A stretch of 38,478 nt of DNA from Candidatus Methylomirabilia bacterium (lineage in GTDB: Bacteria > Methylomirabilota > Methylomirabilia > Rokubacteriales > CSP1-6), in the NCBI GenBank assembly GCA_041478145.1, contig JBGOVO010000003.1, positions 1 to 38,478 on the forward strand. Direction: 5' to 3'. Shown here piece by piece: positions 1,204-34,916 of this stretch (positions are counted from its first letter, which is position 1; every line of letters starts with the position of its first letter). Under the pieces are notes generated by a model. It did not search any database. It saw nothing but the letters and a program-made list of their open reading frames with translations, and was not told where the DNA came from. Both the position numbers and the translations under genes were made by a program.

Positions 1204-2160
1204 TCAGAGCGCGATCTCCAGGCCGTCGTAGGCGGCCCACACCTCCACCCGGTGGTCGCCGCGGGTGATCTCCTCGAGCCGCCGCGTCTCGGCCAGCAGG
1301 GTCGCGATGCGCTCGTCGTCGAAGATCGGCTCGTGGTGATAGAGGCAGAGCCGGCGCGCCCGCGCGAGCTGGCACAGCTCCACGCCCACCACGTTGCTCG
1401 AGTGCCCCCAGTCCTCCTTGACCGAGATGGAATCCGCCAGGGAGTACTGGGCGTCGAAGATCACCAGGTCGGCGTCGCGGAAGAACTCGACGAACGTCTT
1501 CATCTTCTCCGGATCGTCCTGCTTGTGCTCGGAGTCGGTGGAGTAGACGACCACCTTGCCGTGCCGCTCGAGGCGGTAGCCGTAGGAGTCGCCGCCGTGA
1601 TGCTGCAACTTGGCCCGGACGCGGAACCCTGCGATGTCGTAGTCGCGCTCCGGCTCCAGCCGGATGAACTCGATCCGCGCATTCATCCGAGAGAAATCCA
1701 CCGGGAACGAGGGCGCCGCATTCTGGCGACGGAAGGCCTCCTCGAGCGTGTCGTGGCAGCCGTAGATGCGCACGTGATTGCCGGGCAGGTAGGCGGGCAT
1801 GAAGAAGGGAAACCCCATGATGTGGTCCCAGTGCAGGTGCGACATGAACACGTGGAAACGGTGGCCGGCGGGCCCCCGCGTGGCCAGCACGCTGTTGCCG
1901 AGCACCCGCGCCCCGCTGCCGAGGTCGCACAGCACGTAGTCCTCTTCGCCGGTGTCGATCTGCACGCACGAGGAGTTGCCGCCGAAGGTGTGGGAGACCG
2001 AGAAGTCCAGCTCCTGCTCGACGAAGGCGCGCGCCTTGCCCGTGGTGTCGAGCCCGCGCCCGGCTCCCTGGACCAGCGCGGTGACGAGCTTGCGCTTCAC
2101 CTCGGCCGAGGACATGGCGACCGGGATCGAGCCGCGGGTGCCCCAGAAGCGGACGAGCAT
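1204..2160 (-). CDS. MBL-fold metallo-hydrolase (phosphodiesterase-like)
   Basis: N-terminal FWGTRGSIP, GGNSSC, HLHWDH metal motif, DAQY, WGHSS, YHHEP. Confidence 0.9.
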   Translation of the reverse strand: MLVRFWGTRGSIPVAMSSAEVKRKLVTALVQGAGRGLDTTGKARAFVEQELDFSVSHTFGGNSSCVQIDTGEEDYVLCDLGSGARVLGNSVLATRGPAGHRFHVFMSHLHWDHIMGFPFFMPAYLPGNHVRIYGCHDTLEEAFRRQNAAPSFPVDFSRMNARIEFIRLEPERDYDIAGFRVRAKLQHHGGDSYGYRLERHGKVVVYSTDSEHKQDDPEKMKTFVEFFRDADLVIFDAQYSLADSISVKEDWGHSSNVVGVELCQLARARRLCLYHHEPIFDDERIATLLAETRRLEEITRGDHRVEVWAAYDGLEIAL

Positions 2161-2170
2161 GGGATCGCCT

Positions 2171-2545
2171 TCAGGCTCCGTCGAAGGCGGCCAGCCCGGG
2201 CGGCGAGAGCTTGGCCAGCGCCTCGCGCAGGGTGGGGAACACCTCGAGGACCAGATTGAACCGGCTGATCTCGAAGATCTCGCGCACCACCGGCTGGAGA
2301 TCGGTCACCGCGAGCGCTCCCCCCTGGGCCTTCGCCTGCTTGGACGCGAGGATGAGCACGCGCAGGCCCACGCTGCTGATGTACTCCACGCCGGCCAGGT
2401 CGAGGACGACGCGATCGCGTCCCGCCGCGCACGCGGCCAGGTGGGGCTGGAGCGCGGCCTTGAACCCCTCCGCGGTGGCGTGGTCGATGCGCCCCGCGGG
2501 GAAGAGCGCCACCGTGTCGGCGAAGCGCTTCGCGGCCAGCTCCAT
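2171..2545 (-). CDS. STAS-domain anti-sigma factor antagonist
   Basis: GRIDH...VVLDLAGVEYISSVGLRVL...VREIFEISRF. ATG 2545 follows GGGGAG RBS. Confidence 0.9.
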   Translation of the reverse strand: MELAAKRFADTVALFPAGRIDHATAEGFKAALQPHLAACAAGRDRVVLDLAGVEYISSVGLRVLILASKQAKAQGGALAVTDLQPVVREIFEISRFNLVLEVFPTLREALAKLSPPGLAAFDGA

Positions 2546-20548: not shown

Positions 20549-21421
20549 TTAGAGCAGGCCGGGCACGAAGGCGTCACGCCCCCGCACGTAGGTGGCCTGG
20601 CGCTGGGCCGCGTTGCGATTCACCAGCGGGCGCATGTACATGGGGTGGGTCGCGCACCGAACCTCGTGCTCGAGCTCGGACAGCTGCTTGCCGCTGTCCG
20701 GGTCCACGATCACCTGGAACCGGTACTGGTAGGGATTGCTCTCCTCGGTGACGAGGCCACGCTCCACGAGCCACGCGTGCGGGCCCGAGAAGTCGGCGAT
20801 GTAGATCGCGACGTGGTGGCCATCGTAGGACGCGATCGGGGCGTCCGTCTCCCGGAACACCAGCTCCTGCCGGTAGCCCACGCTCACGTGGGCGGCGGCG
20901 CCCCGGTCGTCCTGGCTCACGGTGGCGGTGGCGGCCAGCGCTCGCTCGTAGAAGCGCGCGATGCCCGCGGCCGCGCCGCGCCCCACCGGCACTTCCACGC
21001 GGCCGATACCGAGCGTGACGTCGCCCCACTCGGGCCCGGGGCCCACGCAGCGGAACTGGTTGCCCCACGGGCACGTCACCGCCACGTGCTTGTCGCGCAC
21101 TTCGTACGCGAACGCGGTGCCCGCGAGCGGCTCGCGCACCGCGGCCAGCCGGCGCGTCAGCGCGTCGAGATCCGGCACCACGAGCTCCACGTGCCCCTGC
21201 ACCACCTGGGGCTTGGCGGTGGGCAGGTGGAACTGGGTCTGCCCCGCGTTCGCCCACATGTTCTCCACGCTCACCATCAGGTAGGGATCGCGCGTCAGCC
21301 CGAGCCCGGCGATGTAGAAGAGCGTGGCCGCCTGCTGATCCGGAACGCGCACGTTGACGTGCTCCAGCAGCAGGACGTTACCGAGGTCTTGTTCCCGCCG
21401 ATCGTAGGTCATCGCCGCCAT
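20549..21421 (-). CDS. VOC/glyoxalase-like two-domain protein
   Basis: LEHVNVRVPD...FY..GLGL, QFHLP, CPWGNQF, FYERAL, HHVAIY; GAGGAGG RBS. Confidence 0.75.
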   Translation of the reverse strand: MAAMTYDRREQDLGNVLLLEHVNVRVPDQQAATLFYIAGLGLTRDPYLMVSVENMWANAGQTQFHLPTAKPQVVQGHVELVVPDLDALTRRLAAVREPLAGTAFAYEVRDKHVAVTCPWGNQFRCVGPGPEWGDVTLGIGRVEVPVGRGAAAGIARFYERALAATATVSQDDRGAAAHVSVGYRQELVFRETDAPIASYDGHHVAIYIADFSGPHAWLVERGLVTEESNPYQYRFQVIVDPDSGKQLSELEHEVRCATHPMYMRPLVNRNAAQRQATYVRGRDAFVPGLL

Positions 21422-21461
21422 GGCCCGGGCCCTCCTCAGCCCCGCGGCCAAGCATACTACC

Positions 21462-21677
21462 TCATCGGCTCACCCGCACTCCTGCATTCTGGCCGACCTG
21501 GGCGTCGCCCTGGGCCAGCCACTGCCCGAGACGGATGAGGCCGGCCCCGAGGCGCGCACCCATTCCGCGACGGCGCGGCCTCGCCGCCGCGAGCGCCGCC
21601 ACCCGCGCGGACTCGGCCCTCAGCTCGGCCAGCCGCACCGCGACCAGCTTCTCCGTGACGTACACGCCCAGGTCCAT
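21462..21677 (-). CDS. Small hypothetical protein (71 aa)
   Basis: AGGAGG RBS before ATG 21677; MDLGVYVTEKLVAVRLAELR...RLGAGLIRLGQWL amphipathic helix. Confidence 0.7.
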   Translation of the reverse strand: MDLGVYVTEKLVAVRLAELRAESARVAALAAARPRRRGMGARLGAGLIRLGQWLAQGDAQVGQNAGVRVSR

Positions 21678-21694: not shown

Positions 21695-22099
21695 CTAGGC
21701 CGCCCGGCTGAGCCGACCGGCCGCCCGCGGGGATCCCGTGGCCATCCGCCGGAGCCCCGGCCGCACTGCCTGGGGCACCAGCACCAGCCGGAGCCGCGGT
21801 GGGTCCTGCCGGTCCAGCCGGCGGAAGAGATCGTGCGTGATCCGGGTGATGGCGCCCACGGTGGTCTCGCGCTCGAGGGGCAGCCGCATCGAGACGATCC
21901 ACTCGCGCGACCAGCTCCGCCGCACCACCGGCGCCGCCGCGGCGCCCAGCTCGCGGTGAATGGCGTCGGTCAACGCGATCTGCCGGGCGATGCGCTCCTC
22001 CCGGTAGTCGGCGATCCGCTGGGTCAGCGCGAGCAAGCCCCAAACCGCCAAGAATGGAATCAGCACGATCATGATCGTCGTCTCTATCGCTCCGCTCAT
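21695..22099 (-). CDS. Hypothetical protein with an N-terminal TM helix
   Basis: AGGAGG RBS before ATG 22099; hydrophobic IMIVLIPFLAVWGLLAL. Confidence 0.72.
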   Translation of the reverse strand: MSGAIETTIMIVLIPFLAVWGLLALTQRIADYREERIARQIALTDAIHRELGAAAAPVVRRSWSREWIVSMRLPLERETTVGAITRITHDLFRRLDRQDPPRLRLVLVPQAVRPGLRRMATGSPRAAGRLSRAA

Positions 22100-22138: not shown

Positions 22139-22168
22139 TTGAGACACCGGTGATCACGCGGCGTGAAA
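22139..22168 (-). promoter_or_regulatory. ECF-sigma-type promoter, copy 2 (TTTCAC-N17-GTCTCAA)
   Basis: Same boxes and same spacing as the copy upstream of the ECF sigma gene. Confidence 0.75.
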
Positions 22169-22194: not shown

Positions 22195-23160
22195 CTACGC
22201 GGACAGCGGATGCAGGTCGGGCCGGCAGGTGGTGCAGGGGGCGAACCCGGCGGCCTCCGCGCGCTCGCGCGCGCCGAACAGCGTGAGCGTGGACAGGGGC
22301 TGGGACATCAGCGACCCGCAGGTCGGCAGGCAGTATTCGCGCTCGCCGTTCATGAGCGTGTACATCGCCTCGCGGCGCACCTTGAAGTCGTGGTGCGAGG
22401 CGACGGTCCTCACACCCTCCACCGCGAGCAGCCGCTGCTTGAGATCGACGTGCTTGCCCGCGTAGCCGGTGAGCGCGCCGGTGCTGCCGATCACCCGGTG
22501 GCAGGGAATGACGATGGGCAGCGGATTCCAGCGCAGGGCCTGCGCCACCGGCCGCACCGCGGACGGCGCGCCGATGCGGGCGGCGATGCCCGCGTACGAC
22601 GTGACCGCACCGTACGGCAGCGCCGCGGTGGCCTCGAGCACGCGCCGCTGGAACTCGCTCCGCACCCGGCGCAGGTCGAGCGCCCAGTCGAGCCGCGCGC
22701 GCCGCCCCTCGAGATACTCCATCAGGTCCGCGCGCAGGCCTTCGGTGGCGGCGCGGTCCTCCACCGCGTCCTCGCCGAGCAGGCGGCGGACGTGGGCGGG
22801 CAGAGATCTCATGGCGGGGAGGTACTGCACGAGCGCCACGCCCTGCTCGGAGCGGCCGATGAGCACCGGGCCGAGCGGCGAGGGAAAGATCCCGAAGCCC
22901 ACCATGCGCGAGCGCACGTCGGCCAGGCGCGCCGCGAGCTGGGCCCGTGCCAGCGTCGCGTCGTCGCCGGGGAGCGGCGCGCGCCGCAGCGTGTGCACCA
23001 TGCCGTCGACCGCTCGATAGTGCCCGAGCTCCTCCCGGCAGGGGCGGCACCCGGCCACGTGCCCCTCGACGCGCTCCACGGCGGCCGGGCCGGCCTCCCC
23101 GATGGCCACGGCCAGGAGATGCGGCTCGATCGCTCGGCAGCTAGGAGGCGGCTTGCTCAT
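22195..23160 (-). CDS. zf-HC2 anti-sigma / methylated-DNA-protein-cysteine methyltransferase / Ada Zn-binding fusion protein
   Basis: N-terminal C...HVAGCRPC (ZAS); central SPLGPV, FQRRVL, YGAVTSY, NPLPIVIPCHRV, GYAG (Ogt); C-terminal YCLPTC...AEAAGFAPCTTCRP (Ada Zn). ATGA overlap with the sigma stop. Confidence 0.9.
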   Translation of the reverse strand: MSKPPPSCRAIEPHLLAVAIGEAGPAAVERVEGHVAGCRPCREELGHYRAVDGMVHTLRRAPLPGDDATLARAQLAARLADVRSRMVGFGIFPSPLGPVLIGRSEQGVALVQYLPAMRSLPAHVRRLLGEDAVEDRAATEGLRADLMEYLEGRRARLDWALDLRRVRSEFQRRVLEATAALPYGAVTSYAGIAARIGAPSAVRPVAQALRWNPLPIVIPCHRVIGSTGALTGYAGKHVDLKQRLLAVEGVRTVASHHDFKVRREAMYTLMNGEREYCLPTCGSLMSQPLSTLTLFGARERAEAAGFAPCTTCRPDLHPLSA

Positions 23161-23684
23161 GACTGGGAGTCCGTTCCCGCGGGGAGATGACCGTCGAGGC
23201 CTCGCCGGATCTTCCGGAGCGCCTGGAAGACGTGCGCGCGGGCGCTCTCCTCCGAGCAGCGGAGGCTCGTCCCGATCTCGGGGTAGTCCAGCTCGTGCAG
23301 CTTTCGCATGATGAAGGCCAGTCTCTGCTTCTCGGGCAATCCGTTGACCACCTGTTCGATCCGCGCCCGCGCTTCCTCCGCGATCACCCGCCCGTCGGCC
23401 CGCTCCGGCGCACCCATCGGCATCTCCATCGCCACCGCGGCGTAGGCCCGTCGCCGGCGCGACTGGCCTCGGAAGTGATTGCGGCCCAGGTTCGTGGCGA
23501 TCGTGAACAACCACGCCCGGACATTGGCGCCCGCCGGCAGCGCGCGGTACGCCCTGAACGCGCGGAGGAAGGTCTCCTGCGAGAGATCGTCGGCATCGCT
23601 CGCGCGAGCCGTGATCCGCAGCAGGTAGCGCCGGATCTCCGCGTGATGGGCCCCCACCACCGCCTCGAAGGCATCCTCTGCCAT
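23157..23684 (-). CDS. ECF RNA polymerase sigma factor
   Basis: Region 2 DADDLSQETFLRAF, RAWLFTIATN; region 4 LPEKQRLAF...YPEIG...SARAHVFQALRKIR. Start placed at 23684/23687, downstream of the promoter motif (the ORF extends to 23738). Confidence 0.93.
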   Translation of the reverse strand: MAEDAFEAVVGAHHAEIRRYLLRITARASDADDLSQETFLRAFRAYRALPAGANVRAWLFTIATNLGRNHFRGQSRRRRAYAAVAMEMPMGAPERADGRVIAEEARARIEQVVNGLPEKQRLAFIMRKLHELDYPEIGTSLRCSEESARAHVFQALRKIRRGLDGHLPAGTDSQS

Positions 23685-23695
23685 CACCCTGCCCA

Positions 23696-23725
23696 TTGAG
23701 ACCCCGGACCCCGGCGGCTGTGAAA
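23696..23725 (-). promoter_or_regulatory. ECF-sigma-type promoter, copy 1 (putative autoregulatory; TTTCAC-N17-GTCTCAA)
   Basis: Ends about 10 nt before the sigma start codon; duplicated at 22139-22168. Confidence 0.75.
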
Positions 23726-23742
23726 GGAGCTCGGCCATTCCG

Positions 23743-24820: not shown

Positions 24821-25237
24821 ATGGCCGACGGCGTCAAGATCGACACGGTGCGGTCCGGCTCGAGCGGCGTGCTCGGCCGCTCGCTCAACGGCGCGCGCCA
24901 TCAGCACTTCGTGCTCGATTCGCCCTCCGGGCCCAACGAGGCGATCACCAACGGCGAGGCGTTCCTGGCCGGCATCTCGTCCTGCGGCGTCACCCTGATC
25001 GAGAAGCACGCCCACGACACCGGCGTGCCCCTCGCGAGCATGGAGGTGGTGATCGAGGGCGTCCGCAGCGACGCGGCGCCCAATCGCTTCCAGGCCATCA
25101 ACGTGAAGTTCGCGCTGCGCGGCGTGGACCAGGCCCGCGCCGAGGCCCTGGTCGAGACGTGGCGGGAGCGCTGACCCCTCTACCGCACGGTCGCGGTGGC
25201 GACCGACGTGAAAGTGGAAGTCACCGCCGTTCCCTAG
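24821..25237 (+). CDS. OsmC-family peroxiredoxin-like selenoprotein (Sec at TGA 25172-25174)
   Basis: First Cys in AGISSCG. TGA sits exactly where the conserved second Cys (R-C-P) is expected. Readthrough gives PLYRTVAVATDVKVEVTAVP*, completing the fold. Confidence 0.85.
25188..25205 (+). other. Bacterial SECIS-like hairpin
   Basis: CGGTCGC-GGTG-GCGACCG; the G-starting apical loop begins 21 nt after the UGA. Confidence 0.65.
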
Positions 25238-30556: not shown

Positions 30557-31254
30557 TCCGCATCGGCACGTCCGGCTACAACTACCCTGAGTGGCGCGGG
30601 ACCTTCTACCCGGAGAAGTTCCCCACCGGCAAGATGCTCCCCTACTACGCCGAGCGGTTCTCCACGGTGGAGATCAACTACACCTTCTATCGCATGCCCA
30701 ACGCCAAGACCATCGCGGGCTGGAGCGCGGAGACGCCCGCGGGCTTCTCCTTCACGCTCAAGGCGCCGCAGCGCATCACCCACTTCGCGCGGCTGCGGGA
30801 GATCGACGACCCGCTACGCTACTTCCTGGACACCGCGGCCGGGCTCGGGCCGAAGCTCGGGCCGGTGCTCTTCCAGCTCCCACCCAACTTCAAGAAGGAC
30901 CTGGGCCGCCTGGGCGGGCTGCTCGACCTGCTGCCCGCGGGCCTCCGCTGCGCCTTCGAGTTCCGCCACGAGAGCTGGTTCGCCGACGACGTGTACACGC
31001 GGCTCCGGGCCGCCAACGCCGCGCTCTGCGTGGCCGACACGGAGGACGCGACCACGCCGCTCGAGGTCACCGCCGACTGGGGCTACCTGCGGCTGCGCGA
31101 TCAGGGCTACACTGCGACGGACCTCGAGGAGTGGAGGCGGACCATCGAGCGGCTCAGCGCCGGGTGGCGCGATGCCTTCGTCTACTTCAAGCACGAGGAG
31201 GCCGGGACCGGGCCCGCCTTCGCCCGCCAGCTCCAGGCCCTCGTGAATCCGTAG
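30553..31254 (+). CDS. DUF72 (YecE-like) protein
   Basis: IGTSGYNYPEW, VEINYTFY, KAPQRITH, LFQLPP, FEFRHESW, YLRLR, YFKHE. Confidence 0.92.
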   Translation: MIRIGTSGYNYPEWRGTFYPEKFPTGKMLPYYAERFSTVEINYTFYRMPNAKTIAGWSAETPAGFSFTLKAPQRITHFARLREIDDPLRYFLDTAAGLGPKLGPVLFQLPPNFKKDLGRLGGLLDLLPAGLRCAFEFRHESWFADDVYTRLRAANAALCVADTEDATTPLEVTADWGYLRLRDQGYTATDLEEWRRTIERLSAGWRDAFVYFKHEEAGTGPAFARQLQALVNP

Positions 31255-33964
31255 CCCCACCCCTCACCCTGCCCTCCCTCCTGGGGGGAGAGGGGGACGC
31301 GAGGCGCGCCTCGACCCGCTCGAGCGCGGCGGCGATGTCGATGCCCCCGCCGAGCACCGGCGTCAGCGGATCGGCCATCTTCTCGAAGCGCGCCGCGATG
31401 GTTTGCAGGTTGAAGCGCGAGGGGTCGAGGCGCGGCGTCACCTCGCGCCACTCGAGCGGGCAGGAGGCGGGCGCGCCGGGCAGGGGCCGCAGGGAGAACG
31501 GCGCCACGATGGTCTGCCCGTGCCCGTTCTGGCCGAAGTCGATGTACACCTTGCCGCCGCGCGCGCGGAGCGGGCGCGCCACCGTCGAGATGGATGGCTC
31601 GGCCTCGACCCCGAGGGCCGCCAGGAGGCGCGCGAAGTTCCGCGTCTGCTCGTAGGTGTAGCGCGCGCCGAGCGGCAGCAGGACGTGGAGCCCGGTCGCG
31701 CCCGAGGTCTTCACGTAGCTCGGCAGCGCGAGGTCGTCGAGGATGCCGCGCAGGGCGAGGGCCACCCGGACCACGTCGGTGAACGGCGCGCCCTTGGGGT
31801 CGAGGTCCAGCACCAGCCAGTCGGGGCGCTCGAGCGACGGGACGCGCGAGGCCCACACGTGCACCGGGATGGCGGCGCTGTTCGCCACGTAGCGGAGCAT
31901 CTCCACGTCGTCGACCACCAGATACGCGATGTCGCGCTCGGTGTCCTTCGAATAGATGCGCTCGGTCCGGACCCAGGCGGGGGCGAACTCGGGCGCGTCC
32001 TTCTGATAGAAGGACTTCCCGCTGATCCCGTCGGGAAAGCGCGTCAGCACCAGCGGCCGGTCCCGCAGATACGGCAGCATCAGGGGGGCGACGCGCTCGT
32101 AGTACGCGATCAGATCACCCTTCGTGTAGCCCTCGGCCGGCCAGAAGACTTTCTTGACGTTGGTGGGCTGAAGCCGCGGTTGCGGTGGCGCTACCGGAGC
32201 TTCTTGTTCTGATTGGGGGGGAGCGAGGGCCGCTCCTCCCCCAAGCCCCCCCACCCCTTCCCGGTCAGCCCGCTCCGGTAACGCCACCGCCTCCGGTTGC
32301 CACGACATCTCTCTCCGGCACGCGTCCGGCTTCTTGTCGTCGCGCAGCCCGATAAAAGTGGGGTGGCGCAGGCCGCCCTCCTCGGTCCAGTCGGTGAAGC
32401 GTACCTCGGCGACCAGGCGGGGCTCCACCCAGTGGTGGCCCCGGCCGCTCGGGACCGCGCCGGCGTCGAACGGGGGCGTCGCGCGCGCCAGCGGCTGCAG
32501 CCGCTCGCGGATCGACTTGAGCGAGGCCTCGTCGAAGCCGGTGCCCACCTTCGACACGTAGACGAGCCGCGGCGCGGACGCGGGACCATCGTAGAGCCCC
32601 AGGTGCAGCGCGCCGAAGTGGCTGCGCGAGCCCTGCGGATCGGAGTAGCCGCCGATCACGAACTCCTGCCGCCGCTGACACTTGATCTTGATCCAGTCGC
32701 GCGTCCGCCCGCCGGTGTAGAGGCTCCGAGCCTTCTTGGCCACGATACCCTCGAGCCGCTGCTCCGAGGCCGCGTCGAAGAACGCCTCCCCCTCCGCCGC
32801 GACGTGATCGCCGTAGCGGGCGGGCCCGAGCGGCGGCACCAGGAGACGCAGGCACTCCTTGCGATCCACCAGCGGCAGGCGCCGCAGGTCGCGGTCGTCC
32901 AGCATGAGGCAGTCGAAGAACACGCCCACCGCGGGCCGCTGCGCGGCCGCCATCTCGATCTCGCGGCGATCGGTGAGCGCCATGCGCGGCTGCAGCCGCT
33001 GAAAGCTCGGCTTTCCCGCGTCGTCGAGAACCACGATCTCGCCATCGATCACGAAGCGATCGATCGCGAGCGCGCGGAGCGCGTGCGCCACCTCCGGATA
33101 GCGGGAGGTCGTGTCCTGGCCACTCCGGCCGTAGAGGGTCACGCGCTCCCCCTCGCGGGAGGCGAGCACGCGCACGCCGTCGTACTTGATCTCGTAGAGC
33201 CAGGCCGGATCCGAGAAGGGGCGCTCGGCGAGCGTGGCCAGCGCGAACGCTTGCGCGCGCGCGTTCACCTCGCCCCGCGGCGCCCCGAGCGCGTCCAGGC
33301 GCGCGCGGATCGCGGTGAGCCGGCCCGAGACGTCCGCCATCTCCTCCACCGTGAGGCCCGAGATCACCGATTGCGGATAGCGCTCGGTCAGCTCGGCCGC
33401 GGGGGGGAGGGCCGCGCCGTCGGCCTTCTTCAGCAGCAGCCACTCGCGGTCCTTGCCCGACATGCGCGCGAGTGTCCAGCGCCCGCGCATCTTATAGCCG
33501 AATATCTCCACCTCGACCTTGCCGCGGGCGAGCTGCTCGAGCGGATCCTGCGGCTTGGTGGAGCGGTACCACCCGCGGTCCCACACGATGACGGAGCCGG
33601 CCCCGTAGTTGCCGGACGGGATCACGCCCTCGAAGTCGCCGTACTCGATCGGGTGGTCCTCGACGTGCACGGCCAGCCGCTTCTCCTCCGGGTGCACGGA
33701 GGGTCCCTTGGGCACGGCCCAGCTCTTCAGCACGCCGTCCATCTCGAGGCGCAGGTCGTAGTGCAGCCGGCGCGCCGCGTGCTTCTGCACCACGAAGAGC
33801 CGCCCGCCCGCGGGCGGCCGTCCGCCGAACGGCTCGGGCGTGCGGTCCGGATCGCGCTTCTTGCGGTACGCGTCGAGCGGCGGCGGCCGCTCGCCCCCGA
33901 GCGAGTCCGGCACAATCCGTCGCCCCTTCGCGGCGGGCTGACCCCTATCCGGTGCGGTGGCCAT
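31187..33964 (-). CDS. ligD: DNA ligase D (phosphoesterase-ligase-polymerase)
   Basis: PE: FVVQKHAARRLHYDLRLE, SWAVPKGPS. LIG: EIKYDGVR, IDGEIV, EGIVAKK. POL: RFPDG, FYQK, DLDP, KTSGATGLH. Start uncertain. Confidence 0.95.
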   Translation of the reverse strand: MATAPDRGQPAAKGRRIVPDSLGGERPPPLDAYRKKRDPDRTPEPFGGRPPAGGRLFVVQKHAARRLHYDLRLEMDGVLKSWAVPKGPSVHPEEKRLAVHVEDHPIEYGDFEGVIPSGNYGAGSVIVWDRGWYRSTKPQDPLEQLARGKVEVEIFGYKMRGRWTLARMSGKDREWLLLKKADGAALPPAAELTERYPQSVISGLTVEEMADVSGRLTAIRARLDALGAPRGEVNARAQAFALATLAERPFSDPAWLYEIKYDGVRVLASREGERVTLYGRSGQDTTSRYPEVAHALRALAIDRFVIDGEIVVLDDAGKPSFQRLQPRMALTDRREIEMAAAQRPAVGVFFDCLMLDDRDLRRLPLVDRKECLRLLVPPLGPARYGDHVAAEGEAFFDAASEQRLEGIVAKKARSLYTGGRTRDWIKIKCQRRQEFVIGGYSDPQGSRSHFGALHLGLYDGPASAPRLVYVSKVGTGFDEASLKSIRERLQPLARATPPFDAGAVPSGRGHHWVEPRLVAEVRFTDWTEEGGLRHPTFIGLRDDKKPDACRREMSWQPEAVALPERADREGVGGLGGGAALAPPQSEQEAPVAPPQPRLQPTNVKKVFWPAEGYTKGDLIAYYERVAPLMLPYLRDRPLVLTRFPDGISGKSFYQKDAPEFAPAWVRTERIYSKDTERDIAYLVVDDVEMLRYVANSAAIPVHVWASRVPSLERPDWLVLDLDPKGAPFTDVVRVALALRGILDDLALPSYVKTSGATGLHVLLPLGARYTYEQTRNFARLLAALGVEAEPSISTVARPLRARGGKVYIDFGQNGHGQTIVAPFSLRPLPGAPASCPLEWREVTPRLDPSRFNLQTIAARFEKMADPLTPVLGGGIDIAAALERVEARLASPSPPRREGRVRGGATDSRGPGAGGRRRARSRPPRA
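31260..31296. repeat. REP-like palindromic element, second copy, read through by the ligD 3' end
   Basis: CCCCTCACCCTGCCCTCCCTCCTGGGGGGAGAGGGGG. Confidence 0.7.
32213..32262. repeat. G/C-tract palindromic element inside the ligD inter-domain linker
   Basis: TTGGGGGGGAGCG-AGGGC-CGCTCCTCCCCCAA hairpin plus a C-tract; similar hairpin at 36574. Confidence 0.6.
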
Positions 33965-34016
33965 CGGAGACTTGGAGCATAGCCGCGTGCGTGGTAGTCT
34001 GCAAAGCCTCATAGCC

Positions 34017-34916
34017 ATGGCGCCTCATTCCATCGGCTCGGGTACCATCTCCTTCGGGCTGGTCTCCATTCCGGTCAAGCTCTACACCGCGGCCTCCGGA
34101 GGCGGCGTGAGCTTCAACCTGCTCCACGCCAAGTGCGGTAACCGCATCCGCCAGCAGACGTTCTGCCCGGTGTGCAACGAGGTGGTGGAGCGCGGCGGCC
34201 TCGTGAAGGGTTACGAGTTCCAGAAGGAGCAGTACGTGCGCTTCAGCGACGAGGAGCTGAAGTCGCTGGAGGGCGAGGCGTCGAAGGTGATCGACATCGC
34301 CGAGTTCGTGCCGCTGCCCTCGGTGGACCCGATCTACTTCGAGAAGACCTACTACCTCGGCCCCGACAAGGGCGGCGAGAAGCCCTACCGGCTCCTCGCC
34401 GACGCCATGGCCAAGACCGATCGGGTCGCCCTCGCCACCTTCGTCATGCGCGGCAAGGAGAGCCTGGTGCTCGTCCGGCCCGCCCAGGACGGGCTGATGC
34501 TGCACACGATGTACTTCGCCGACGAGGTGCGCGACTTCGGCGAGATCGAGAAGGGGAAGTCGGTCAAGCTCCGCGACGGGGAGCTCCAGCTCGCGGAGCG
34601 GCTGATCGACGAGCTGTCGCGCGACGAGTTCAAGCCCGAGCAGTACCAGGACGACTACCGGAATCGCGTGCTCGAGGTGGTGAACTCGAAGGTGGAAGGC
34701 AAGGAGATCACCTCGGCCGCGCCCGAGGCGCAGCGCGCCCAGGTCATCGATCTCATGGACGCGCTCAAGCAGAGCCTCGCCCGGCGGGCGGGCGGCGGCG
34801 GCGAGAAGCCGGCCGCGAAGGACGCGGCCGCCCTCGCCAAGAAGCCCCCCGTCAAGGCGCCGAAGCGCGCCGCCGAGCCCGACAAGGACAGGAAAGCGCA
34901 AGCCGGACGGAAATGA
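34017..34916 (+). CDS. ku: Non-homologous end joining protein Ku
   Basis: GTISFGLVSIPVKLY, LVKGYE, VDPIYFEKTYYL, YRLLADAM, VIDLMDALKQSL, K/A-rich tail. Confidence 0.96.
   Translation: MAPHSIGSGTISFGLVSIPVKLYTAASGGGVSFNLLHAKCGNRIRQQTFCPVCNEVVERGGLVKGYEFQKEQYVRFSDEELKSLEGEASKVIDIAEFVPLPSVDPIYFEKTYYLGPDKGGEKPYRLLADAMAKTDRVALATFVMRGKESLVLVRPAQDGLMLHTMYFADEVRDFGEIEKGKSVKLRDGELQLAERLIDELSRDEFKPEQYQDDYRNRVLEVVNSKVEGKEITSAAPEAQRAQVIDLMDALKQSLARRAGGGGEKPAAKDAAALAKKPPVKAPKRAAEPDKDRKAQAGRK

Follow-up and report, generated by a model that had tools for sequence, protein, structure and literature searches.

The stretch of DNA analysed here (the window, 38,478 nt, positions 1 to 38,478 of contig JBGOVO010000003.1, assembly GCA_041478145.1) comes from a Candidatus Methylomirabilia bacterium of the order Rokubacteriales. 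On its minus strand it carries a gene for an extracytoplasmic function (ECF) sigma factor, followed by a gene for a 321-aa protein in which a zinc-binding anti-sigma (ZAS) domain, an O6-alkylguanine-DNA alkyltransferase (Ogt) and an Ada-like zinc domain (AdaZn) are fused. An earlier inspection of the letters and open reading frames (ORFs), made without database searches (the sequence-only reading), had taken these two genes for a candidate sigma-based adaptive response to DNA alkylation. The features of the locus are collected in Table 1.

The predicted sigma factor consists of regions 2 and 4 only, as is typical of the ECF group (group IV), and it passed the family models Sigma70_r2 (56 bits), Sigma70_r4_2 (47.6 bits) and TIGR02937 (81.1 bits, cut-off 42.9). 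Its TGA stop codon overlaps the ATG of the 321-aa ORF by 4 nt (ATGA, in the minus-strand context cagtcATGAgc), so that the junction had been read correctly from the sequence, and the two proteins are predicted to be translationally coupled. Read from its first ATG, the sigma ORF spans 23157..23738 on the minus strand and specifies 193 aa; the alignment of homologs begins at residue 15 of this ORF, and the long form would begin upstream of promoter P1. As the conserved promoter lies inside the 193-aa ORF, the true start is probably the ATG at 23696 or the one at 23684. The position 23725, at which the sequence-only reading had ended the unit, falls on the -35 box of P1.

Table 1. Genes, protein domains and predicted promoters of the sigma/fusion locus, with further motif copies in the same genome (positions refer to the window unless a contig is named)
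Feature	Position	Strand	Basis or remarks
ECF (group IV) sigma factor gene, ~175-179 aa	23157..23696	-	Start ATG 23696 or 23684; Sigma70_r2, Sigma70_r4_2, TIGR02937
Fusion gene, 321 aa: ZAS anti-sigma domain + Ogt + Ada-like zinc domain	22195..23160	-	Pfam, alignment, AlphaFold2 (AF2) model
Class-I-like anti-sigma domain, residues 1-88	22897..23160	-	ZAS ligands C8, H34-x3-C38-x2-C41; four helices, 6-19, 25-35, 39-60, 68-83
Two-domain O6-alkylguanine-DNA alkyltransferase, residues 89-250	22411..22896	-	DNA_binding_1, TIGR00589, PDB profile match
Ogt active site P219-C220-H221-R222	22495..22506	-	PCHR invariant
Truncated Ada-type Cys4 zinc domain, residues 275-315	22216..22338	-	Nearly uncharged; Pfam, alignment to 1adn
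Predicted promoter P1, ECF-type two-block motif TTTCACA-N13-GGGGTCTCA	23699..23725	-	Directly before the sigma coding start; position weight matrix (PWM) 37.8 bits
Predicted promoter P2, TTTCACG-N13-GGTGTCTCA	22142..22168	-	26 nt past the fusion stop; PWM 32.2 bits
134-aa single-pass membrane protein	21695..22099	-	Behind P2; motif RQIxLTDAIHRELGAxAAP; Shine-Dalgarno AGGAGGA
~71-aa protein (MDLGVYV...)	21462..21677	-	Same direction, behind the membrane-protein gene
Third motif copy, TCTCACA-N13-GGTGTCTCA, with the operon behind it	Contig C52 (locus L002), 1341..2410	-	Before DUF1706-Ogt operon; 30.4 bits
Fourth motif copy, with the gene behind it	Contig C342, 6645..7293	-	Before gene for 204-aa DUF2652 protein (88.8 bits); 25.5 bits

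Domain architecture of the fusion protein

The N-terminal part of the fusion protein resembles the class I ZAS domains, in that the HxxxCxxC motif and an upstream Cys ligand are set in a helical N-terminal domain. The zf-HC2 family (PF13490) matched residues 8-42 with 19.1 bits (Pfam cut-off 22.2), and the RsrA model TIGR03988 was the best non-Ogt match of the fusion in NCBIfam (E 0.0015, below the model's cut-off). The alkyltransferase is of the two-domain Ogt/AGT type, with PCHRV lying in DNA_binding_1 (PF01035, residues 169-250, 100 bits) and preceded by an N-terminal domain; Methyltransf_1N (PF02870) matched the latter weakly in the window protein and was found in 53/60 homologs. TIGR00589 scored 93.6 bits, and a PDB profile search matched M. 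tuberculosis OGT over residues 87-252 (5.7e-29). At the C-terminus, Ada_Zn_binding (PF02805) matched with 25.3 bits (cut-off 23), the match covering profile positions 26-65 of 65. The AraC-type helix-turn-helix (HTH) that forms the output domain of Ada/AdaA regulators is absent (no HTH_18/AraC match at E <= 0.1 in Pfam), and the Ada model NF011964 matched the Ogt part only (90 bits, cut-off 345). No transmembrane helix was predicted in the fusion, for which the highest 19-residue Kyte-Doolittle mean was 1.14 compared with 2.36 in the neighbouring membrane protein.

A protein search returned 2127 matches, and among the best 120, which were listed, identities ranged from 65 to 99% and nearly all proteins were ~320 aa long. 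They came mostly from Rokubacteria/Methylomirabilota and were annotated at source merely as 'methylated-DNA-protein-cysteine methyltransferase'. In an alignment of 60 of them (64-86% identity) the diagnostic residues of all three parts, namely C8, H34, C38 and C41, P219-C220-H221-R222, and C277, C281, C309 and C312, were invariant (60/60). When these homologs were scanned individually, zf-HC2 was matched in 53/60 (E <= 0.01; best E 8e-8), and Ada_Zn_binding and DNA_binding_1 in 60/60 each. Since the diagnostic residues are invariant and the domains recur across the 60 homologs, the architecture is not a product of chance. The sequence-only reading is thus upheld for the protein as a whole: it had described an N-terminal ZAS motif, an intact alkyltransferase and a C-terminal Ada metal-binding domain with all four Cys, in an order reversed relative to Ada, with neither a transmembrane helix nor an AraC HTH.

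The Ada-like domain departs from its namesake. Residues 276-316 align (HMMER) with residues 37-76 of the N-terminal domain of Ada (N-Ada, 1adn), and the four zinc cysteines C277, C281, C309 and C312 correspond to C38, C42, C69 and C72. The complete domain with its basic DNA-docking surface is not present, and the R/H/K positions of N-Ada, which are kept in relatives that lack the ZAS domain (see below), are L/G/L/M/T in the window protein. The net charge of the domain is ~0 in the window type versus +5.2 in the ZAS-less relatives, and basic residues number 0.6-0.7 versus 3.6 in the 13 residues of the loop that follows the first Cys. With these basic residues lost, the domain is doubtful as an acceptor of DNA damage, and the window type probably no longer docks on DNA. 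The earlier suggestion that either acceptor Cys could take up the methyl group is accordingly in doubt as far as DNA methylphosphotriesters are concerned; repair of DNA phosphotriesters by the Ada-like domain of the fusion was considered and rejected as unlikely. Judged by its sequence, it more probably serves as a zinc site of structural or regulatory kind, or is alkylated directly by SN2 agents.

Conservation of the gene pair

Gene order was compared in the 30 best loci. The sigma gene lies directly upstream of the fusion gene in 29/30 (tblastn), the thirtieth contig ending 79 nt upstream, and the junction overlaps by 4 nt in 23/27 measurable loci. The ECF neighbourhood of the homologs, named by the sequence-only reading as a point to be checked, is therefore conserved, and the fusion gene is placed as ZAS genes are, beside a cognate ECF sigma gene with which it would be co-transcribed. 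In a survey of the phylum, some match to the fusion was found in 140/151 genomes and a near-full-length match (E <= 1e-94) in ~84/151, a hand count that takes in three unpublished genomes. All but one of the near-full-length matches fall in two families of the window's order, and the predicted pair is conserved across Rokubacteriales. Among 347 plasmid records, none covered 80% of the fusion protein (tblastn), and one lead (H22) was noted. Pieces of the locus are present, with 0-22 differences, in three metatranscriptome libraries from two studies. As these are contigs only, in which DNA may be present, no start, strand or transcription can be read from them, and they are a mere hint that the locus occurs in those samples.

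In two window-type copies that lack the ZAS part, the nearest start codon that could be used lies 156 or 255 nt past the end of the sigma gene; a frameshift, a truncation or an error of assembly may account for them. Seven near-identical Rokubacteria-type loci were found in metagenome-assembled genomes titled Nitrosotalea, Dormiibacterota, Deferrimicrobiaceae, Limnocylindria, Acidoferrum or Verrucomicrobiia, and the titles of these records probably do not reflect the organism.

Promoter motif and predicted regulon

A two-block motif with the consensus TTTCAC[AG]-N13-(C)GG[TG]GTCTCA precedes the sigma coding region in all 25 of the loci examined. Past the fusion gene, and in its orientation, the motif recurs in 27/30 loci; the distance from the fusion stop is mostly 0-275 nt, and in two loci 822 or 911 nt. 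With its two blocks, its constant spacer and its place ahead of the sigma gene, the motif is as expected of an autoregulated ECF promoter, and we predict it to be one.

A PWM was built on 53 motif instances and used with a threshold of 18 bits, the reversed sequence serving as control. In the window's own genome (79% complete) it found four sites above 18 bits against none in the control, two of them in the window (P1 and P2). The third precedes an operon in which a gene for a 152-aa DUF1706 protein (ClbS/DinB superfamily) overlaps by 4 nt a gene for a canonical 179-aa Ogt, and this position ties the sigma factor, by prediction, to alkylation defence. In five genomes of the same genus 22 hits to the motif pattern were found against none in the reversed control, and the motif precedes the DUF1706-Ogt operon in 5/5 and DUF2652 in 3/5. 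Five genomes of other genera gave 15 hits, again with none in the control; SRPBCC, arginase-family, ABM and small 'MDxNDY' proteins also stand behind the motif there. One genome (G137) had no exact match to the motif.

The gene directly behind P2 codes for a small membrane protein whose homologs, specific to the phylum, lie downstream of the pair in 28/30 loci. Its AF2 model (pLDDT 78.6) has one long helix and a small beta-beta-alpha-beta domain. Pfam gave no match to it, no fold match fell below E 0.04 (best 0.042), and a features-only search of the Atlas gave unnamed clusters. The ~71-aa protein that follows has homologs in 12/30 loci and likewise no Pfam match; the small 'MDxNDY' ORFs behind further motif copies elsewhere are similar to it.

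Structure prediction and modelled sigma binding

In the AF2 model of the fusion protein (pLDDT 79.3), four helices at the N-terminus are followed by the two domains of Ogt and by a small C-terminal beta/alpha domain (pLDDT ~90). Ogt structures dominated the Foldseek results for the whole model, the best being M. tuberculosis OGT (1.5e-10), with weak matches to the methylated N-Ada/DNA complex (1u8b, E 0.34, prob 0.82) and to the anti-sigma factor ChrR (2q1z_D, E 1.0, prob 0.33).

Modelling the complex of sigma and ZAS domain, a check proposed in the sequence-only reading, gave a positive outcome, as a model. The sigma factor with residues 1-88 scored 0.78 (runs 0.79, 0.78 and 0.77), whereas the best of three controls scored 0.00; in a benchmark the mark for this score was attained by 58/80 solved complexes and by 2/110 mismatched pairs. 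Partner pLDDT did not fall below 86, and the runs had 86% or more of their contacts in common. Contacts to sigma region 4 (residues 109-172) are made by helices I and III, and those to region 2 (residues 7-48) by helix IV; in the model, region 4 is thus held by helices I-III and region 2 by helix IV, as in the classical anti-sigma clamp. The modelling supports binding of the sigma factor by residues 1-88. A cysteine in sigma region 4 (Cys147, in SLxCSxESAR) is invariant across 25/25 aligned sigma factors and lies outside the modelled interface residues.

ZAS-less relatives and ECF122

The association between ECF sigma factors and Ogt proteins extends beyond the window type. The same genome has a second ECF sigma gene (180 aa; contig C457, locus L004, 636..2621, plus strand) that overlaps a gene for a 244-aa Ogt-AdaZn protein lacking the ZAS cysteines; PCHRV is present, the Ada_Zn match is 36 bits, and the next gene specifies a 2OG-Fe(II) oxygenase (PF09859, 'Oxygenase-NA'). 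The two sigma factors of this genome are unrelated, aligning over only 55 residues with 29% identity, and their promoter types differ, that of the C457 operon being TTCCRCCCGTT...GCGTATAT. Nonomuraea gerenzanensis likewise has an ECF sigma gene overlapping a gene for a 248-aa Ogt-AdaZn protein. In that case the sigma factor is 31.5% identical to that of the window (E 5e-23), and its promoter (TGCAACC-N13-CGGTGTT[CG]TA) resembles the window motif, as do the promoters of Chloroflexota loci (TTTCACAAAAC...GG[CT]GTTATA).

A scan of genome contigs gave 76 Ogt loci, a sample that is biased because the loci were selected by two peptide patterns. Within it, an ECF sigma gene lies directly upstream of all 55 Ogt genes with a C-terminal CxxxC...CxxC, and of 5/21 without AdaZn (Stackebrandtia, Frankiaceae, two Chloroflexota, and a Chloroflexia ZAS-Ogt of 244 aa); four of the 16 sigma-less loci had little upstream DNA. 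In Actinomycetota, 31/301 genomes gave a strong match (E <= 1e-40; hand count), and among the 30 best actinobacterial loci the sigma gene was upstream in 28/28 assessable cases and AdaZn was present in 28/30. Vulcanimicrobiota and Chloroflexota are also represented in the Atlas by Ogt clusters (237-252 aa), and zf-HC2 occurs in 12% of the members of one cluster. When the N-terminal part of the Chloroflexia ZAS-Ogt was used as query in a word-based search, three proteins only were returned. A distribution limited to Rokubacteria was considered and rejected, given the coupling of sigma and Ogt in Nonomuraea, in the 55 AdaZn loci and in the 28 actinobacterial loci. Judged by these comparisons, the window pair belongs to a wider, uncharacterised sigma-Ogt family that crosses phyla. 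As the ZAS-less Ogt-AdaZn proteins are equally coupled to a sigma factor, it is the repair body, and not the ZAS domain alone, that is tied to sigma. Alignment of the N-termini weakly suggests that the ZAS-less forms retain short traces of the anti-sigma helices I and IV, the suggestion being weak because the aligned segments are short.

Part of this association is already in print. ECF122 is listed, in a passage of a review, among groups 'without cognate anti-sigma factors', with 6-O-methylguanine DNA methyltransferases as neighbours, an unknown mechanism and an example from Cellulomonas (PMC8999054). The main text of the Casas-Pastor 2021 classification contains neither 'ECF122' nor 'methylguanine', and its supplements may already describe the neighbourhood. 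The window sigma resembles ECF122 in its conserved Ogt neighbour and, through its identity to the actinobacterial Ogt-coupled sigma and the similar promoter, may, on this indirect comparison, be linked to that group. Unlike ECF122 as described in that passage, its partner carries an explicit ZAS domain. No characterised Ogt-type anti-sigma factor was found in full-text searches of the literature, whose sole match was the ECF122 sentence of PMC8999054. The statement of the sequence-only reading that no characterised example was known therefore stands for the fusion and the switch, while the link between sigma and Ogt is itself on record; the ZAS-Ogt-AdaZn fusion, its promoter and regulon, the correlation of AdaZn with sigma and the proposed switch were not found in print.

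Proposed mechanism and alternatives

E. coli Ada is a suicide methyl acceptor that is both a repair enzyme and a regulator of its own gene, being turned into a transcription factor by the damage it repairs. The fusion protein shares with it an Ogt-type domain with PCHR and a Cys4 site aligned to that of N-Ada, and is proposed to share its dual role. It differs in the lack of an AraC-type HTH, in the reversed domain order and in its truncated Ada-like domain without the basic residues; its output would pass through release of an ECF sigma factor and not through direct binding to DNA. In other respects it resembles RsrA/SigR and RshA/SigH of Actinomycetota and ChrR/SigE of Rhodobacter, having a cytoplasmic HxxxCxxC anti-sigma domain, a gene beside that of an ECF sigma factor and a predicted autoregulated promoter. 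As in ChrR, where it is a sensor, a C-terminal domain is appended to the anti-sigma domain; unlike in RsrA, RshA and ChrR, this C-terminal partner is a DNA-repair alkyltransferase with an Ada-like zinc domain.

The data are best accounted for by an autoregulated pair of ECF sigma and cytoplasmic anti-sigma factor that controls defence against alkylation (or electrophiles), the anti-sigma factor being a suicide alkyltransferase. We regard this statement, taken as a whole, as evenly poised between holding and failing, and its parts carry different weight. The sigma factor and the fusion protein very probably form a true sigma/anti-sigma pair, and there is a reasonably good chance that the regulon serves alkylation or electrophile defence. 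As long as cells are unstressed, the fusion protein would sequester the sigma factor. Irreversible S-alkylation would inactivate it, the likeliest site being Cys220 after transfer from O6-alkylguanine; alternatively, SN2 agents might alkylate the zinc-bound thiolates directly. The alkylated protein would be destabilised or reshaped, and would either be degraded or let the sigma factor go. Freed sigma would then transcribe its own operon and its other targets, and newly made fusion protein would repair DNA and re-titrate sigma, so that output would follow the amount of damage. A model for the switch is provided by the human and archaeal AGT/MGMT enzymes, which, in the account consulted, are destabilised and degraded after alkylation (PMC7216122). 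That suicide alkylation is the trigger of sigma release is what we infer, purely, and we place it slightly on the doubtful side of an even balance. To our knowledge, the degradation of AGT/MGMT has no known link to a sigma factor.

Several observations weigh against this proposal. The window protein's own zf-HC2 score falls short of the Pfam cut-off, and when the whole alignment was searched as a profile against the PDB, the similarity to anti-sigma factors was non-significant (RsrA E 0.67, DdvA E 0.64). The complex score expresses the confidence of a model and, because sigma/anti-sigma complexes have been solved before, may reflect likeness to these. The promoters are recognised by conservation alone. 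Among the predicted targets, the membrane protein, DUF2652, SRPBCC and arginase-family proteins are not repair proteins, and in three genomes of the other genera DUF1706 stands behind the motif without Ogt. In the Ada-like domain, the first third of the Pfam domain is missing, as are the basic residues of N-Ada. Finally, thiol stress can be sensed by ZAS domains unaided, and a sensing role for the Ogt body is thus not required.

This last point leads to the main rival, an ordinary thiol/redox or electrophile-sensing pair like RsrA-SigR and RshA-SigH, in which the ZAS zinc site would be the sole sensor and the Ogt and Ada-like parts co-made repair cargo. Such a pair would account for the invariant C...HxxxCxxC, for RsrA being the best non-Ogt family match and for the general stress-type proteins among the predicted targets, and it has a precedent in C. 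glutamicum, where the SigH/RshA regulon, as listed in PMC3489674, includes the putative ogt gene cg0186, up 1.91-fold in the rshA mutant. A purely passenger role leaves unexplained, however, why ZAS-less Ogt-AdaZn proteins are just as tightly coupled to ECF sigma factors in two phyla, and the Ogt catalytic residues and the four Ada cysteines are as invariant as the ZAS ligands. We consider a plain thiol sensor with a repair passenger to be somewhat unlikely.

Alternatively, the Ogt-AdaZn protein could be an Ada-like co-factor of the sigma factor, its methylated form aiding the holoenzyme at damage-response promoters or tethering sigma to damaged DNA. Ada activates transcription after methylation and contacts sigma70, and this idea would suit both the occurrence of AdaZn only with a sigma gene upstream in the biased sample and the absence of a recognisable anti-sigma domain from the ZAS-less forms. 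It is hard to reconcile with the window protein, which has a complete ZAS domain modelled in an inhibitory clamp over regions 2 and 4 and an uncharged AdaZn that misfits a DNA-bound activator, and we judge it quite improbable. That sigma and repair protein are merely co-transcribed, with sigma controlled elsewhere, for example through its transcription or by the neighbouring membrane protein, would agree with the entry of ECF122 among groups without cognate anti-sigma factors (in the same passage of PMC8999054) and with the conserved membrane-protein gene next door (28/30 loci), but is highly improbable given the conserved ZAS ligands, the complex model that passes, overlapping stop and start codons typical of stoichiometric partners, and a membrane protein that lacks an anti-sigma motif and is preceded by a promoter copy of its own.

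Returning to the alkyltransferase as anti-sigma factor, a broader form of the proposal can be put forward tentatively, as rather less likely than not. Suicide alkyl transfer would act as a stoichiometric damage counter that frees an ECF sigma factor, and the family would represent a second, independently evolved adaptive response, present at least in Methylomirabilota and Actinomycetota and, as ZAS-Ogt or N-extended Ogt forms, in Chloroflexota; the ZAS-less Ogt-AdaZn body with its remnant of helices I and IV would then itself be an anti-sigma factor. If this is true, the cognate anti-sigma factor of ECF122 has been overlooked and the group gains its missing regulator. The logic of Ada would have been built twice, here on a sigma/anti-sigma switch that senses an irreversible, countable chemical event, and covalent suicide modification would join the known ways of inactivating anti-sigma factors. 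A sigma factor, an anti-sigma factor and a promoter of ~30 bp would also make a compact, orthogonal alkylation switch usable in ECF-based synthetic circuits.

Other genes of the window

Further genes flank the locus. The gene that follows the small ORF (20549..21451, minus strand) codes for a glyoxalase/VOC-like protein of 300 aa, and a gene upstream of P1 (23743..24888, minus strand) for a 381-aa protein that matches no Pfam family; both are conserved within the genus only. An OsmC-like gene (24821..25174, plus strand) lies just beyond the latter. At ~8-11 kb from the sigma/fusion locus is a non-homologous end-joining pair, consisting of a LigD gene (31187..34018, minus strand; 943 aa, with phosphoesterase, ligase and primase-polymerase parts) and a divergent Ku gene (33957..34916, plus strand).

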